Under the pieces are notes generated by a model. It made no database searches. It saw only the letters and a program-made list of their open reading frames with translations, and had not been told where the DNA came from. This document shows positions 1,865 through 63,526 of a stretch of DNA of 64,000 bases, piece after piece. The stretch is from a virus. Taxonomy: Duplodnaviria > Heunggongvirae > Uroviricota > Caudoviricetes. The stretch covers positions 120,333-184,332 of the IMG/VR virus record IMGVR_UViG_3300028260_000001; one strand, written 5' to 3'. Each line of letters starts with the position of its first letter. The stretch's first letter is position 1. Both the position numbers and the translations under genes were made by a program.

Positions 1865-1890
1865 GCTTCCCCTAGGGGAAGCTTTATGCC
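1865..1890 (+). repeat. intergenic hairpin cassette (GCTTCCCCTAGGGGAAGC + TTTATGCC)
   Basis: 18-bp perfect palindrome followed by TTTATGCCG; identical palindrome recurs at 2603-2620. Confidence 0.6.
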
Positions 1891-1970
1891 GCAATGTTAT
1901 GTTTAGGAGATAATAGAATGTTCAAACAACTATTAGCAGGTATAACTACAGTTTGGAATTGGTGACTTAA

Positions 1971-2588
1971 ATGATGGAAACATTATTAATGCGTGCTCAG
2001 GTGACACCGTCAAATGTACCAGGGCCAGCAACCCTACGTAATGGGGACAGTACATTAGGTTATTATGGACAAGTACCAACGTCTGAATTCATTACTAGTA
2101 CTGACTTAGCCACCCAAGTTAACTTGACGGCGGGTACAGCGCTTGCAAACAACGAGACATGGTTGAAGTTTGCATATAAAGGAAAGGTGCTCTTTGTTGC
2201 TATGCAACCATTCCGTAACTTCATCTCACCAACGCAACTAGAAGCAGCGAATCTAATCAACGGCGCTAAAACAATTACGTTCTTAGGTCGTCTATATAAA
2301 GTTCGTTTGATGTTGGGTGGTGCAGCATCGCCAGGTAATGGGAGCGAATGGAACGACCTGATCTACCGTGTACACGCTAGTGATCCTACAGGGTCTAATT
2401 GGGAAGCGTTCACAAACGCCGATCTGGTGGTAGGGGTTGGTAACGGGCGTACGTCGTGGTGTCAGGAAATACCATCCGGTACTAACCGTACGTATCGCGG
2501 ATATGCGTCATTAACAGAGTGGGCATCTGGCGGCACTGGTTCAGCCACAGCTACAACAGGTTGGCGTCCAGTGCTAGAATTGGTCTAG
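1971..2588 (+). CDS. hypothetical protein (possible tail-fibre/receptor-binding component)
   Basis: 205-aa ORF between lectin-domain genes; Gly/Ser/Thr-rich C-terminus; preceded by 15-codon upstream ORF 1918-1965. Confidence 0.5.
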   Translation: MMETLLMRAQVTPSNVPGPATLRNGDSTLGYYGQVPTSEFITSTDLATQVNLTAGTALANNETWLKFAYKGKVLFVAMQPFRNFISPTQLEAANLINGAKTITFLGRLYKVRLMLGGAASPGNGSEWNDLIYRVHASDPTGSNWEAFTNADLVVGVGNGRTSWCQEIPSGTNRTYRGYASLTEWASGGTGSATATTGWRPVLELV

Positions 2589-2602
2589 TGGAACGACATA
2601 AG

Positions 2603-2620
2603 GCTTCCCCTAGGGGAAGC
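2603..2620. repeat. palindromic hairpin between convergent genes (probable bidirectional terminator)
   Basis: Same 18-mer as 1865-1882; sits between the + gene ending 2588 and the - gene ending 2631. Confidence 0.55.
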
Positions 2621-2630
2621 CAATATGACA

Positions 2631-3590
2631 TCATTCAATGTAAAGGTGATCGGTACGAACCATAGACGCATCACCTGCCTTACCTAAACCGTTGAAGAAG
2701 TGGAACTCTCCATTCTCAACTGCTGAAGCGAAACCACCACGTTTGGTTAGCGTATCGCCAGTAAGGGTAAGATTACGCCAACTGTTTAGTCCAGGGATGT
2801 ATTCCCAGAAGTCAGCTAAGGAATCTGTAGCGTTACCATCCGTATAACCGCCGAACACATAGAACTTGCCATAAGCTGGAAGCAAACAGGAATAGCATCG
2901 AATGGCAGGTTGTGTGGCTGGAGCAACAAATCCGTTGTATACGTTATCGCCGATGGTATAACGAATTATGTCGTTATTCGTTTTAGATCCACCGTTAGTC
3001 AACCCACCGAAAATATAAACCCCAGTACCAGAAATTGCGATAGCGTGTCCATGTCTGGATTCTGGCAATTGTGCAATCACACGCCAAGTATTATTTGAAA
3101 TGGTGTAGACATCGGCTAACCTTAATTGCGGTGTAGCTTGAGTACCGTTCCAGCCACCAAAGAAATAGATCTCTCCTTGGTATACAACTGCACCATGGTA
3201 AGTACGTCCCAAGTTCGGAGTAGGGGTAAGAGAAGTCCAAGTGTCTGTAGCAATGTCGTAAGCATGCAACTCTTTGGTATAGGTCGATGAGTTGACCGTA
3301 TTACCGGAGAATAGATAGATCTTTCCATTCCAGTAAGACAGTGTACCACCTGACCGACCATTTGGTAAGTTAGCTAAGTTCACCCACTGTCGTGTAGTAA
3401 GATCAAATCTTCGGAAAGTCGATATTGCACCACCACTACCATCCTGAAGTCGACCACCTCCAAGGTATATACCACCGTTACAGCCAATGGCCATAGCTCC
3501 AGAGTTGCCGGGTAATAGGTCACCAACCAACGTTACGCGAGTCTCTAATTTCTTAGGGGGCTTCCCAGGAAATAATAATTGTTCAAACAT
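2631..3590 (-). CDS. Kelch-repeat beta-propeller protein (galactose-oxidase-like fold), probable receptor-binding/tail-associated
   Basis: Repeated GG....Y..D/N..T..W blades (YDIATDTWTSL, FDLTTRQWVNL, YTISNNTWRVI). Confidence 0.65.
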   Translation of the reverse strand: MFEQLLFPGKPPKKLETRVTLVGDLLPGNSGAMAIGCNGGIYLGGGRLQDGSGGAISTFRRFDLTTRQWVNLANLPNGRSGGTLSYWNGKIYLFSGNTVNSSTYTKELHAYDIATDTWTSLTPTPNLGRTYHGAVVYQGEIYFFGGWNGTQATPQLRLADVYTISNNTWRVIAQLPESRHGHAIAISGTGVYIFGGLTNGGSKTNNDIIRYTIGDNVYNGFVAPATQPAIRCYSCLLPAYGKFYVFGGYTDGNATDSLADFWEYIPGLNSWRNLTLTGDTLTKRGGFASAVENGEFHFFNGLGKAGDASMVRTDHLYIE

Positions 3591-3638
3591 CAGAATATAC
3601 CTAAGGCTAAGTCTTATAGGATGTCGGGAAAAAATACT

Positions 3639-3659
3639 ACGAGTATAATAATATACGAG
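3639..3659 (+). promoter_or_regulatory. promoter candidate for tRNA cluster 2 (TATAAT at 3644-3649 + conserved TATACGAG)
   Basis: Perfect -10 hexamer 10 nt before the tRNA 5' end; 20-mer shared with 813-832. Confidence 0.4.
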
Positions 3660-61531: not shown

Positions 61532-61539
61532 ATGAATCC

Positions 61540-62451
61540 TTACGGGAATTTGGTTGGCAGCTTGTTAGTATAGGTGTATAGACCGGTTCCGAAACCGGGA
61601 CTATTCGATTCTTTCAAGAAGAACCGATGACCAGGAAGATCTACGTCTAGTTTACCGATTGCGATGGGTTCCGGCATCATACCCACACGCAATTTGATCT
61701 CATCAATATTCAAAGACCATTCTTTACAATCGTGGTCGTAATTGTTGTGAATTGCAGTCATGAACGGAGCCAGATCAACTACTGGAATGCCAGAGTTATC
61801 TAACGTATTGATATTGATGATTACGTCATAGGACAGATAATCATAAACACCTGGGCAATTGGGGACTTCTACTAAACGCGTGTATGCACCAATCGGATCG
61901 AGTCGTTCATTGGTGATCTCGATGATCGGACGATAACTGGAATCACCTTCACAGCAAAGATCTTCAATCTTGGCAGTATATGGGTGGACATCATTGAACC
62001 AGCCATATTGGAATTCACGAAGCATAACCGAGGGGATGCTAACTGCCTGCCCCCCTCGGGTATACAACACGATCCAATCACCTTTGATGCTATCACGCTT
62101 CAGGTAATACTTGACATCATTCTTTGGCCAAGTAATAAAGTGAATACCGCAATGATCACTTACATTGCGCATTTCCATATGGCTAACAAGAGCTACAGCA
62201 TGATTGTGCCAACTCGAGTGGGTACGCTGATCTCGAAGAATCCAGTTGAACCTGTCCTTCTTTGGAATATCCAAAGTACATGCAGGAACTGGATACAACG
62301 AGTTCTTATGGAAGAAGACGAGTTCTCCGTTCTTCATTACCAGGTACATGTCGCGATACTCTGGATGTCTGAAGAATGGAACATAATCTTTGAAGCTTTC
62401 GTCTTCTACCAGACTGGCCAATCGACTCTTGTTGATATACGACCTGAACAT
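61540..62451 (-). CDS. hypothetical protein
   Basis: 303 aa. Confidence 0.6.
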   Translation of the reverse strand: MFRSYINKSRLASLVEDESFKDYVPFFRHPEYRDMYLVMKNGELVFFHKNSLYPVPACTLDIPKKDRFNWILRDQRTHSSWHNHAVALVSHMEMRNVSDHCGIHFITWPKNDVKYYLKRDSIKGDWIVLYTRGGQAVSIPSVMLREFQYGWFNDVHPYTAKIEDLCCEGDSSYRPIIEITNERLDPIGAYTRLVEVPNCPGVYDYLSYDVIININTLDNSGIPVVDLAPFMTAIHNNYDHDCKEWSLNIDEIKLRVGMMPEPIAIGKLDVDLPGHRFFLKESNSPGFGTGLYTYTNKLPTKFP

Positions 62452-62460
62452 CTTATTTCC

Positions 62461-63429
62461 TTATGCGAAAGTACGAGGGAACAATCCATCATTACGGATT
62501 TGGAATGAAGCGGACTTCGATCCATTAGGGAAATGGAAGAAGTATTTGTTTTCATAAAGCGAATGCATAACCATACCGTGACTGAGTACACCGTCAATGA
62601 TAAAGTCAATGCGATCCAGATCGATCAATACAGCTCGTCCATGGAACTCAGCTGCCACAATGTGGTTGATCAGGTAGTAGACGTTCAAGACTTGATTGTC
62701 TCCAGCCATACCCGACAGATCGATAGCCAGTCGATAAGAGTGCTTATCGGACAAACCTTCGCCTGCACCCTTCAATGCAATGACCGAATCATCCTTGTCC
62801 ATCTCGGTTAAGGTGTAACGCTCACGCAGTGTCTTGCGGATAGGCAGATTAGATACATCTGTAACTGCCATGCTGTTGTCGATGACTACTCGATTTTTAT
62901 ACGAGAGGTTATCGAGATGCCACGTTCCACCATATTGGTCCAATAGAAAAAACATGAACCAACCAGTTCGACGAACCGACAATGCATCCGGCATGGTATA
63001 CAGATTCAACCTGGGACCCCGGCTGGAATCACAAGCTGCATACCACTTAATACCTCTTGCATCGGTGTAGACATGTATTCCTTCATGAGCTGCGAGTTGA
63101 CGCACAATAGCAATGCGGTCATTCATGAAGTTCACAACGCTATCGGCATCAGGGCGATGCGACAGATGCTTTACATGGGTGGAGTCATTACGCGTACAGA
63201 ACTCAAACGTATACTGACTGGCGTCATTACCGGTCAGATGCATGCGTCCAAGTTCTGGTCCTTCCCCGATACGATGGAACCCAACTTTCCCTTCGTAGTC
63301 ATCTTCGACGAAGACAAGCCAGCGCTTCTGATTCTCATCAGTAGCAATTGCAAAGTGCACGTCATGCAAGTGCATTACACGTGCAAGCCATGCCTCCTTG
63401 CTTTCTAGCAAGCGTCTACGGATACCCAT
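62461..63429 (-). CDS. hypothetical protein
   Basis: Start at MGIRRR; the upstream Met would place the promoter motif inside the gene. Confidence 0.55.
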   Translation of the reverse strand: MGIRRRLLESKEAWLARVMHLHDVHFAIATDENQKRWLVFVEDDYEGKVGFHRIGEGPELGRMHLTGNDASQYTFEFCTRNDSTHVKHLSHRPDADSVVNFMNDRIAIVRQLAAHEGIHVYTDARGIKWYAACDSSRGPRLNLYTMPDALSVRRTGWFMFFLLDQYGGTWHLDNLSYKNRVVIDNSMAVTDVSNLPIRKTLRERYTLTEMDKDDSVIALKGAGEGLSDKHSYRLAIDLSGMAGDNQVLNVYYLINHIVAAEFHGRAVLIDLDRIDFIIDGVLSHGMVMHSLYENKYFFHFPNGSKSASFQIRNDGLFPRTFA

Positions 63430-63460
63430 CTTTATTTTTCCTTTTGGTGAATTAAGCCAA

Positions 63461-63477
63461 AGTAGTAATATAGATCT
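63461..63477 (-). promoter_or_regulatory. promoter-like motif (sense: AAAGTTTGAGATCTATATTACTACTTTGG)
   Basis: CTATATTACT family; directly downstream of terminator 63494-63526. Confidence 0.45.
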
Positions 63478-63493
63478 CAAACTTTTTGTGATG

Positions 63494-63526
63494 AAAAAAA
63501 AAACATAACGCCTCCCCGAAGGGAGG
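63494..63526 (-). terminator. intrinsic terminator (GCCTCCC-CGAA-GGGAGGC + GTTATG + U10)
   Basis: UUCG hairpin + T10 on the minus strand. Confidence 0.7.

Follow-up and report, generated by a model that had tools for sequence, protein, structure and literature searches.

Probable transcription terminators of the window phage

The hairpin cassettes that recur throughout the 64,000-nt stretch of viral DNA analyzed here (the window) are most probably the phage's own transcription terminators, which belong to a conserved type described in phiKZ and 201phi2-1. The source is a phiKZ-like Pseudomonas jumbo phage that shares 80-82% identity and synteny with Pseudomonas jumbo phage D6, and weaker DNA matches connect the window to RVTF4, Psa21, HPP-Temi, and PA1C. 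RVTF4 encodes a protein homologous to gp123, a non-virion polymerase subunit of phiKZ (66% identity). Signs of phiKZ-type transcription are present in the window itself: the early-promoter motif CTATATTAC occurs in five exact copies, with contexts close to those of published phiKZ early promoters, and sigma-70-like sites are depleted (14 versus 25.7 in shuffles).

Anatomy and abundance of the element

Twenty-six intergenic sites in the window harbor a G/C stem of 7-8 bp that is closed by a loop, mostly UUCG on the sense strand. The tail (Y)TTAT(G/T)YYG follows 1-4 nt past the stem in 20 of 28 strand readings, the G of TATG being located 5-8 nt past the stem. Core stem energies range from -9 to -15.6 kcal/mol. 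The hairpin family had been proposed by a sequence-only reading and is real: all 23 centres that it listed are G/C hairpins, and the window holds 25 perfect stems of >=6 bp with a 4-nt loop, compared to 1-10 (mean ~4) in 20 shuffles. The repeats that it pointed out are confirmed as well, with GCCTCCCCGAAGGGAGGC occurring exactly three times (31520, 36085, 63510) and GCTTCCCCTAGGGGAAGC twice (1865, 2603). The individual sites are listed below; R1 is a covariance model that was built only from window copies (n=18).

1865..1892, + strand: GCTTCCC-CUAG-GGGAAGC with tail TTTATGCCGC, 11 nt past tRNA-Leu; R1 match with E=8.8e-09; stem kept and CTTATGCCG present in D6
2592..2631, two-sided: hairpin 2602-2621 between convergent ORFs 1971-2588 (+) and 2631-3590 (-); tails AATATGAC on + and CTTATGTCG on -; 35-nt core found with 100% identity at an unannotated spot of phage Psa21
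4040..4067, + strand: GTCATCC-UUAG-GGGTGAC (one G-U pair) with TTTTATGCCT, 28 nt past tRNA-Thr; compensatory C-G to U-A change and UUCG loop in D6
5677..5704, + strand: CTTCCC-UGCG-GGGAAG with GCTTTATGTCGT
6137..6162, + strand: GGAGGC-UUCG-GCCTCC with TTTATTTCGC; K = T variant, no ATG; identical in D6
10984..11034, two-sided: hairpin 11005-11024 between convergent ORFs 9216-10985 (+) and 11042-11593 (-); TTTATGCCGT on +; UUCG loop, then AATGTGCCTTA and T10 on -; two compensatory stem pairs versus D6
13262..13289, - strand: GCCCAGC-UUAG-GCTGGGC with TTTATGCCGC, stop codon ending 2 nt upstream; tail identical and stem largely rebuilt in D6
14406..14435, - strand: AGCCTACC-UUCG-GGTAGGCT with TTATGTTGTT
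16875..16902, - strand: GCAGCCC-UACG-GGGCTGC with TTTATTTCGT (no ATG)
18586..18613, - strand: GCGAGCC-UUCG-GGCTCGC with TTATGACGTT; TATG lost in D6 because D6 has TTTTTGACG at the locus
19953..19981, - strand: GTGAGCC-UUCG-GGCTCAC with TTTTATGCCGA
23645..23673, - strand: GAGTCCC-UUCG-GGGACTC with TTTTATGTTGT; identical in D6; followed by early-promoter-like CTACATTAC at 23622-23630
28645..28674, - strand: ATGGGCCC-UUCG-GGGCCCAT with U-rich tail TTTCTTTTTG (no TATG); of the copies, closest to a canonical terminator
29118..29156, - strand: GCTTCCC-UUCG-GGGAAGC with TTTATGCCGTA and T10; early-promoter motif 29076-29084; compensatory U-A to C-G change in D6
31510..31537, - strand: GCCTCCC-UUCG-GGGAGGC with TTTCTGCCGT (TCTG replaces TATG)
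32446..32463, - strand: AGCCCGA-UAAG-TCGGGCT, no tail, 6 nt past a stop codon; conserved in D6; no match by R1; a related 3'-end hairpin, not a member of the motif
36065..36102, - strand: GCCTCCC-UUCG-GGGAGGC with TTCTATGCTA and T10; early-promoter motif 36036-36044; TATA replaces TATG in D6
41061..41078, - strand: GGGCCTC-UUCG-GAGGCCC with TTCTCTTTTG (U-rich, no TATG); identical in D6
41734..41763, - strand: GGCTACCC-UUCG-GGGTAGCC with TTATGCCAAT, then a T-rich run; early-promoter motif 41702-41710
44647..44674, - strand: AGCCACC-UUCG-GGTGGCT with TTATGCCAAT
47603..47630, - strand: GCTCTCC-UUCG-GGAGAGC with TTTATGTCTG; two compensatory pairs versus D6
49665..49706, - strand: GGGGACC-UUCG-GGTCCCC, 15-nt spacer, displaced tail TTTATGTCG at 49665-49673; same arrangement in D6
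55836..55865, - strand: GGCCTTCC-UUCG-GGAGGGCC (one G-U pair) with TTATGTCCCA; Watson-Crick pair restored in D6
59109..59140, - strand: 14-bp UUCG hairpin, dG -25 kcal/mol, no TATG tail, 17 nt past a stop codon; identical in D6; a separate type
59865..59897, - strand: AGGCTTACC-CACAA-GGTAAGCCT with TTATGCCGCC; another hairpin (GGCCCGC-UUAG-GCGGGC) and unchanged TATGCCG in D6
63494..63527, - strand: GCCTCCC-UUCG-GGGAGGC with GTTATG and T10; early-promoter motif 63465-63473

The sequence-only reading named the loops UUCG, UACG, and UGCG, all of which are present (n=17, 1, and 1, respectively); its set was too narrow, as CUAG, UUAG, UAAG, and the 5-nt CACAA also occur. The tail UUUAUGCCG is indeed repeated after the hairpin, but not in every copy. 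Copy 31520 carries TTTCTGCCG, copies 6137 and 16885 lack the ATG because their tail is TTTATTTCG, and in copy 49689 TTTATGTCG is shifted 15 nt downstream. The tail is U-rich without TATG in copies 28655, 41061, and 59109, and the additional hairpins in or beside the set (32446-32463, 41061-41078, and 59109-59140) are all without the motif tail. TTATKYYG is found 26 times in the window when both strands are counted. Twelve of these occurrences begin 1-6 nt past a listed hairpin and share its strand (~0.03 expected at those positions), and the remaining 14 correspond to the background level; essentially only hairpins carry the tail motif.

The count of four U10 tracts was correct (A10/T10 runs are found exactly four times in the window, at 10984, 29118, 36065, and 63494), and a canonical U tract is missing from most copies. 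The T10 runs do not directly adjoin the stem, however, but start 6-11 nt past it, beyond the TATG tail. A generic scan for hairpins with T runs (28-48 kb) returned 18 sites versus 16.3 in shuffles and missed the TATG-tailed copies in sense orientation, except for a truncated 5-bp reading of 47613.

Position relative to genes and conservation

The hairpin starts 2-20 nt past a stop codon in most copies or 11-28 nt past a tRNA gene, while its distance to the next start codon varies from 14 to >120 nt. It is the upstream gene that sets the position of the element, which follows stop codons, not start codons; this contradicts the earlier description of a cassette that always lies just upstream of a start codon. 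Sites 2602 and 11005 are flanked by convergent ORFs and are therefore not followed by a start codon at all. At junctions of same-direction genes, the asymmetric UNCG loops are on the sense strand in 19 of 19 cases. The cassettes form one stereotyped, strand-specific, and phage-specific signal, as the sequence-only reading had suggested.

Identity to D6 amounts to 94% in the stems, 97% in the loop, and 89% in the tail, compared to 59% at positions +26 to +45. Twelve stem pairs are changed in D6, of which eight differ on both sides and still pair, two differ on one side and still pair, and two are broken. The covariation and the conservation of the tail that the sequence-only reading had proposed to look for in relatives are both found, the tail being present in phiKZ as well. 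Covariation is also seen at six of seven pairs across 18 aligned window copies, which is weaker evidence than the D6 comparison because this set was chosen for perfect stems. TATG is >=94% conserved versus D6, and the T's preceding it vary. A weak hybrid alone does not account for this sequence-specific conservation of TATG and YYG.

Match to mapped terminators of phiKZ and 201phi2-1

For phiKZ and 201phi2-1, other groups have mapped RNA 3' ends to the motif and demonstrated termination in reporter assays. In phiKZ, a stem-loop followed by YTTATKYYGT marks 61 termination regions mapped by ONT-cappable-seq 3'-end mapping (Putzeys 2024; PMC10914365), with the motif 5'-BCCYCCCCHWWDGGGRRGGBYTTATKYYGT-3'. 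The earlier argument that copies without a U tract are more likely something other than terminators is not supported, since the same motif marks these regions. In 201phi2-1, a similar motif A (n=59) is reported, and eight terminators of that phage, with or without this exact motif, are strongly active in vivo in reporter assays; these assays ran on the host polymerase, not on phage enzymes (PMC11512511).

Applied to 200 kb of phiKZ, R1 yields 69 strand matches. Within the 70-168 kb portion of the phiKZ site list, 17 of 43 mapped termination sites lie inside a same-strand R1 match (0.28 expected by chance), 4-9 nt before its 3' end and hence inside the tail; the other 26 are without the motif. 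In turn, among the 22 strong R1 strand matches (E <= 0.01), 12 have no called site, some of them being opposite-strand readings of palindromic copies. The mapped phiKZ 3' ends are located 2-8 nt past the stem in the tail, often between YY and G of TATGYYG, at a resolution of a few nt and with termination and processing or 3' trimming not separable by these ends alone. The literal phiKZ 30-mer consensus has no match in the window with up to three mismatches, because the window stems are one base pair shorter per arm than the consensus. The K = T class without ATG occurs both in phiKZ and in the window (6137, 16885).

Proposed mechanism and alternatives

We infer from these data how termination would proceed in the window phage and which role each tail position would play. 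The multisubunit RNA polymerase of the phage (the virion enzyme at early genes, the non-virion enzyme later) would pass the stop codon or tRNA gene, and the nascent RNA would fold into the 7-8 bp G/C stem with its C(UUCG)G-type tetraloop (core -9 to -15.6 kcal/mol). The 7-8 nt that follow (UUUAUGYY) would leave a weak A/U-rich RNA:DNA hybrid, and the transcript would end in the tail, typically just before the conserved G of YYG. Termination would be partial, so that read-through gives polycistronic and nested transcripts. Ahead of an early promoter, the tail would be followed by an additional T-rich run (T10 in three cases). CATAA-like 5' flanks would create a tail on each strand and allow termination of transcripts arriving from either direction, for example at the two convergent junctions.

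It is unlikely that the cassettes serve RNA processing or stability instead, the UUCG hairpin blocking 3'-to-5' exonucleases or guiding an endonuclease while the polymerase does not stop. C(UUCG)G hairpins are reportedly exceptionally stable, as described by Tuerk and colleagues in 1988; the canonical T run directly past the stem is absent in most copies, and the mapped 3' ends are compatible with both processes. The phiKZ 3' ends, however, are found for the most part 3-8 nt past the stem, at a position defined by the sequence of the conserved tail, whereas exonuclease trimming would be expected to end closer to the stem and to impose no selection for TTATKYYG. Moreover, 201phi2-1 terminators lowered downstream reporter expression in vivo (PMC11512511). 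The two functions do not exclude each other, since 3'-end protection is a side effect of any terminator hairpin. A phage factor that reads the hairpin and the UUAUGYYG tail, be it a termination or antitermination protein or an RNA-binding controller of the downstream gene, appears distinctly improbable: we know of no such factor, nothing within the window points to one, and the polymerase itself is the simpler account of 3' ends inside the tail. Conservation of the tail as a sequence rather than as mere U-richness across phiKZ, D6, and the window phage would fit such a factor, and antitermination is raised as a possibility in the 201phi2-1 report (PMC11512511).

Two further proposals assign the tail a role in the next gene. 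In phiKZ, late promoters of the non-virion polymerase consist of TATG with G as the start site, a motif that is necessary in vitro (PMC4666361) and to which the beta-like subunit gp123 binds (PMC12809450), so the hairpin could end one transcript and the tail start the next (G = +1). In ~11 window copies the next start codon follows the tail G after 14-30 nt and a Shine-Dalgarno sequence separates the two, the displaced TTTATGTCG at 49689 is still 16 nt from the ATG, and the constancy of TATG next to variable T's would be accounted for. This arrangement is nevertheless very unlikely. Among the 146 of 149 entries of the phiKZ start-site table that were covered (P001-P146), no start falls on a hairpin-tail TATG; starts past hairpins use a second TATG 5-30 nt on (P006, P049, P054, P075, P104, P139, P143), and the DNA upstream of late promoters such as P119L (P063) is AT-rich and contains no hairpin. 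Tails moreover occur on both sides at convergent gene ends with no gene downstream (2602 here; T051/T052, T059/T060, and T070/T071 in phiKZ), copies 6137 and 16885 (K = T) have no TATG, and away from hairpins the tail motif drops to background frequency. That the tail AUG, 4-6 nt past the purine-rich 3' arm, starts a short leader ORF that relays ribosomes is extremely unlikely, even though the 10-codon ORF 4062-4094 terminates in an ATGA that overlaps the next start codon and the arm (GGGAGG) resembles a Shine-Dalgarno sequence. The ORFs opened by the tail ATG show no pattern in length (2, 2, 3, 4, 5, 5, 6, 9, 10, 10, 10, 11, 14, 16, 20, and 30 codons), three enter the next gene in frame, and the stops are located upstream of, on, or within the next gene without a fixed relation to its start; the leader ORFs suggested earlier are not supported. 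The AUG is absent in two window copies and in the phiKZ K = T class, the putative Shine-Dalgarno sequence is sequestered by pairing worth -9 to -15.6 kcal/mol, and the tail is also present at convergent gene ends.

The window phage is an undescribed relative of phiKZ and 201phi2-1. With the cassettes read as terminators, they are ordinary for this phage group, because a conserved terminator signal has already been mapped in both of these phages.

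Hairpin and tail structure

The cassettes of the window (26 intergenic G/C hairpins, named below by window coordinate, and the tails on their 3′ side) are, by analogy with mapped relatives, new instances, in an undescribed D6-like phage, of the terminator motif published for the giant Pseudomonas phages phiKZ and 201phi2-1. Perfectly paired stems (6 bp or longer, 4-nt loops) occur 25 times in the window compared with about 4 in shuffled sequences, and every center listed by the sequence-only reading was recovered as a G/C hairpin. The two 18-mers that it named as repeated, one at three loci and the other at two, were likewise confirmed. 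A looser search and a covariance model add the hairpins 32446, 41061, and 59109 and nothing further in the window. The stem arms are of the GCCTCCC/GGGAGGC type, and the core stems range from −9 to −15.6 kcal/mol. Sense-strand loops are UUCG (17), UACG, UGCG, CUAG, UUAG, UAAG, and one CACAA. Asymmetric UNCG loops occur 19 times at junctions between genes of the same direction, always with UNCG in the sense orientation, which argues for a function in RNA. Covariation is seen in six of seven stem pairs with 100% pairing across 18 aligned window copies; these were chosen for perfect stems, and the independent evidence of covariation is the comparison with the Pseudomonas jumbo phage D6, the closest relative.

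The tail, a (Y)TTATKYYG-type stretch (K is G or T), has the alignment consensus GC-TT(T)TATGCCGT. TTATKYYG occurs 26 times on both strands of the window; 12 of these occurrences start 1 to 6 nt after a same-strand hairpin and the others correspond to the background level, and about eight further copies have a tail with one mismatch. Of the 28 strand readings, 18 have TATG no more than 8 nt past the stem and two more have TATT; the G of TATG lies 5 to 8 nt past the stem. What is conserved in the tail is a word (TATG, YY, G) and not U-richness, the preceding T's differing between the window and D6. An Rfam search of the window returned six tRNAs only and no family covering the cassette.

The 14-bp UUCG hairpin 59109-59140 (− strand, about −25 kcal/mol) is located inside a 200-nt gene-free stretch (58958-59157). 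The region around it is almost identical to D6 over approximately 100 aligned nt, whereas other intergenic DNA is far less conserved. A small RNA or a regulatory region of another kind could lie here.

Position relative to genes

Most hairpins start 2 to 20 nt past the stop codon of the upstream ORF, and two directly follow tRNA genes (11 nt past tRNA-Leu and 28 nt past tRNA-Thr). The distance from the tail G to the next start codon varies from 14 to more than 120 nt, so that the placement just upstream of start codons proposed by the sequence-only reading does not hold. Hairpins 2602 and 11005 are located between convergent ORFs. Proximity to stop codons, variable distance to start codons, and the convergent sites together mark the element as a 3′-end feature of the upstream unit.

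The two-sided cassette at one convergent junction (2593-2627) is 100% identical over 35 nt to positions 176927-176961 of phage Psa21, where the spot is unannotated and the DNA around the matching 35 nt differs from the window. A separate small ORF of 30 hydrophobic codons (MRIEYNYICGDTACVVSFLLMLFNNLLLNN; 14513-14605, − strand) starts by overlapping the upstream stop codon as TAATG; it is located in the approximately 170-nt stretch between the upstream gene and hairpin 14416, and the counterpart stretch in D6 is unannotated.

Conservation in D6

Orthologs in D6 are present for all copies except 2602. The stems are 94% identical between the two phages, the loop 97%, and the initial 10 nt of the tail 89%, compared with 59% at +26 to +45. 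Twelve stem pairs differ from D6: eight are changed on both sides and still paired, two are changed on one side and still paired, and two are broken. The comparison of covariation and tail conservation with relatives that had been suggested from the sequence thus came out, for D6, with a conserved tail and compensatory stem changes. The TATG positions are at least 94% identical, TATG being missing in D6 at two sites (18596 and 36085). At site 59875, the D6 hairpin is wholly different and TATGCCG is retained. With R1, the covariance model built from window copies, about 21 sites are detected in the 67 kb of D6 that are orthologous to the window. A mobile repeat of the REP or MITE type was considered and rejected on the basis of the orthologous positions in D6, the compensatory substitutions, and the lack of presence/absence divergence.

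The spot at hairpin 2602 is not the same in the two phages, since D6 lacks a counterpart of this hairpin. Compared with window 1971-2588, D6 (L001 2347-3069) has an annotated HNH endonuclease after tRNA-Leu. The spot at 1971-2588 may be a mobile-gene site.

The phage and its promoters

The window is collinear with positions 13.5 to 80.5 kb of D6 (307 kb) at 80 to 82% identity in a DNA comparison, and weaker DNA matches are found to RVTF4, Psa21, HPP-Temi, and PA1C, all of which are Pseudomonas phages of approximately 300 kb. As far as about 11.0 kb, the + strand carries the genes, with 2631-3590 as the exception; from 11.04 kb onward, they are all on the − strand. The window encodes six tRNAs (Trp, two Leu, Ser, Cys, and Thr), RtcB, an RNA ligase, thymidylate synthase, an NAPRTase-family enzyme, and a BCS1-like AAA ATPase. 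The tRNA cluster shares the window with the tRNA-splicing ligase RtcB and the RNA ligase (936-4011, 6510-7826, 44680-46020), which suggests a tRNA repair set. The ortholog of the D6 “cell division protein” (52844-54220, − strand) was considered as a phage tubulin and rejected: it matches the BCS1_N and AAA ATPase domains and has no tubulin or FtsZ match in Pfam. The D6 product name therefore looks misleading, and the window is not taken as evidence of a phage nucleus or spindle.

Polymerase genes are absent from the 64-kb window. The relative RVTF4 encodes a 66%-identical homolog of phiKZ gp123, the β-like subunit of the non-virion RNA polymerase that binds TATG of the late promoter (PMC12809450). 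Matches to sigma-70-like promoters are depleted (14 compared with 25.7 ± 4.6 in shuffles, window 28001-48000), which fits transcription without the host polymerase. Besides this depletion, the window carries candidate early promoters, and T-rich runs accompany several cassettes:

Candidate early promoters and homopolymer runs in the window
29076-29084, − strand: exact CTATATTAC motif
36036-36044, − strand: exact CTATATTAC motif
41702-41710, − strand: exact CTATATTAC motif
60243-60251, − strand: exact CTATATTAC motif
63465-63473, − strand: exact CTATATTAC motif
11781, intergenic: CTATATTAC with one mismatch
16472, intergenic: CTATATTAC with one mismatch
23622, intergenic: CTATATTAC with one mismatch
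55620, intergenic: CTATATTAC with one mismatch
10984-10993: A10/T10 run
29118-29127: A10/T10 run
36065-36074: A10/T10 run
63494-63503: A10/T10 run

The CTATATTAC motifs stand in AT-rich contexts (e.g., AAAAAGTTTGAGATCTATATTACTA), closely resemble the published early promoters of phiKZ, which are used by the virion polymerase, and probably mark early transcription units. Taken as sequence features, these motifs and the sigma-70-like depletion point to transcription of the phiKZ type. Four of the exact motifs are located 30 to 60 nt downstream of a hairpin with its tail and a T-rich run; the run that precedes the early promoter is T10 at hairpins 29139, 36085, and 63510 and otherwise T-rich at 41744. 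The sequence-only reading had counted four A10/T10 runs, and four is the number found. They begin past the TATG tail, 6 to 11 nt from the stem, and hence do not qualify as a classical U tract of that hairpin. The same layout is seen in phiKZ, at the termination site T034 and in the A runs beside T036/T037 and T058. The runs could either act as an additional stop signal or form the upstream portion of the early promoter.

Match to the published terminator motifs

The transcript ends of phiKZ have been mapped by ONT-cappable-seq (Putzeys et al. 2024, Microlife, PMC10914365). The phiKZ motif shares with the window copies a G/C stem whose 5′ arm is rich in pyrimidines and whose 3′ arm is rich in purines, a short loop that is often UUCG, and the tail YTTATKYYGT immediately 3′ of the stem. 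In both phages, it is located after stop codons and has two-sided copies at convergent genes, and in many cases an early promoter of the ..TATATTAC type comes next. The two sets differ in detail. Window stems are usually 7 bp long compared with 8 to 9 bp in phiKZ, UUCG is more dominant among the window loops, and the tail prefers GCCG in the window and GTTG or GTCG in phiKZ. A mirror-image 5′ flank (ACRRCATAA) is found in about 10 window copies, whereas it is nearly universal among the phiKZ sites in the available part of the published table. In 201phi2-1, motif A (n = 59) “strongly resembles” the phiKZ motif according to its authors, a second motif (B) combined with A yields a longer hairpin, and eight terminators showed activity in vivo, in P. 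chlororaphis (PMC11512511). Compared by description only, this lengthening fits the CATAA...TTATG flanks of the window.

The published 30-mer IUPAC consensus as written has no match in the window at up to three mismatches, because the window stems are one base pair shorter per arm and the gapless string cannot fit. The string summarizes the phiKZ copies, and typical phiKZ sites such as T057 also deviate from it; it is not treated as defining for membership of the motif. Many of the tabulated phiKZ sites read like window copies, for instance T057 (..ACATAGGCCCTCCCTTCGGGGAGGGCTTTATGTTGT, then an early promoter), whose sequence was confirmed in the phiKZ genome record.

MAFFT misaligned the phiKZ terminators (reversed arm polarity, other loop lengths), and R1 was therefore built from 18 window copies only and then run against 200 kb of phiKZ, where it gives 69 strand matches. 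Among the termination sites tabulated for 70 to 168 kb of phiKZ, 17 of 43 are located inside a same-strand R1 match, compared with 0.28 expected. The R1 match is 36 nt long, and these 17 sites lie 4 to 9 nt short of its 3′ end, which places them within the tail. In genome coordinates, the 3′ ends in this part of the table fall 2 to 8 nt past the stem and, in canonical copies, often at TATGYY|G. Two-sided sites terminate in both directions at convergent phiKZ genes (T051/T052, T059/T060, and T070/T071). The hairpin and tail family is real, strongly non-random and, judged by these relatives, functional, its role in termination being carried over from them.

Proposed mechanism and alternative readings

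For the window, anatomy, position, strand, conservation, and profile match are established; termination itself is established in the relatives and would apply here by analogy. Most likely, the phage polymerase would transcribe beyond the gene end, and the nascent RNA would fold as a tetraloop-capped stem. UUUAUGYY after the stem would form a weak hybrid, and the transcript would end 5 to 8 nt past the stem, before the conserved G. Copies with a 5′ flank that mirrors the tail (CATAA...TTATG), such as 2602 and 11005, would have the signal on each strand. Partial read-through is implied by the nested transcription units that were described in phiKZ (PMC10914365).

Like a canonical bacterial intrinsic (Rho-independent) terminator, the cassette has a G/C hairpin just past the gene and an A/U-rich stretch in which the RNA would be released approximately 7 to 8 nt after the stem. 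Unlike it, the window copies lack a run of six to eight U's on the stem and carry the UUUAUGYYG tail of conserved sequence instead, and their polymerases would be non-canonical phage enzymes. When at least five T's in 8 nt, starting 0 to 2 nt after the stem, are required, just three sense-strand readings between 28 and 48 kb qualify: 28655, 41061, and a truncated form of 47613. A generic scan for hairpins with T runs over the same 28 to 48 kb gives 18 in total compared with 16.3 in shuffles, hence no excess, and fails to single out the cassettes. C(UUCG)G hairpins were reportedly described in T4 intercistronic regions by Tuerk and colleagues in 1988. They are likewise extra-stable UUCG tetraloop hairpins between phage genes on the sense strand, but they have no TTATKYYG tail, and T4 transcribes with the host polymerase.

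The conserved TATG admits other readings. In phiKZ, the late promoter consists of TATG, whose G is +1, and the non-virion polymerase requires it (PMC4666361); the tail has these four bases in common with it, and the cassette could be a terminator fused to a late promoter. However, in the start-site table none of P001-P146 (0/146) lies on a tail TATG, and start sites after phiKZ hairpins use a second TATG 5 to 30 nt further on (P006, P049, P054, P075, P104, P139, and P143). The late promoters in the available entries, including P119L (P063, 117616), have AT-rich upstream DNA without a hairpin. Moreover, the tail is present at convergent gene ends and in TATT form, and the tail motif is absent upstream of hairpin-less genes. 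As far as the table and the P119L region reach, they rule out the tail TATG as a late promoter, which makes this fusion highly improbable. The chance that the tail AUG opens a leader peptide or translational relay, as the sequence-only reading had proposed for some copies, is close to nil: the ORFs from the tail ATG span 2 to 30 codons, are not placed in any constant way relative to the following start codon, and do not exist in the ATG-less variants. RNA processing or 3′ protection might also generate 3′ ends, and end-mapping alone cannot separate these from termination; they leave a conserved tail with ends 3 to 8 nt beyond the stem unexplained and are quite unlikely as the source. A dedicated factor that binds the cassette is conceivable but unsupported, and very unlikely.

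The tail might also act beyond the weak hybrid, as a sequence-specific stop signal read by the non-canonical phage polymerases, which is rather unlikely. At phiKZ promoters, TATG of the non-template strand is bound by the β-like subunit of the non-virion polymerase. During elongation, the pocket responsible could capture TATG and stall the enzyme 5 to 8 nt past the hairpin. It would pause at a pyrimidine followed by G, and the short UUUAU would be enough for release. The T7 class II pause and termination signal, a sequence-specific and hairpin-independent signal for a single-subunit polymerase, offers an analogy for the tail, as a phage polymerase is stopped by a short conserved sequence and not by a U tract; it differs in needing no hairpin, in its sequence, and in its single-subunit polymerase. 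No termination factors are known for the polymerases of these phages. If the stop-signal reading were true, one four-base word would be a start signal in AT-rich DNA and part of a stop signal behind a G/C hairpin. This possible reading of the tail word by phage polymerases during elongation is the sole part with some novelty.

Significance

With termination by hairpin and weak hybrid as the preferred reading, the 26 sites would show where transcripts end in an undescribed D6-like jumbo phage and, combined with the TATATTAC motifs, would delimit its early operons; their annotation as leader peptides or unknown RNA elements is not warranted. Little is added to the biology beyond the published work on phiKZ and 201phi2-1. 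By this comparison, the terminator design, including its sequence-specific tail, holds in at least three lineages of these phages and evolves in place by compensatory change.
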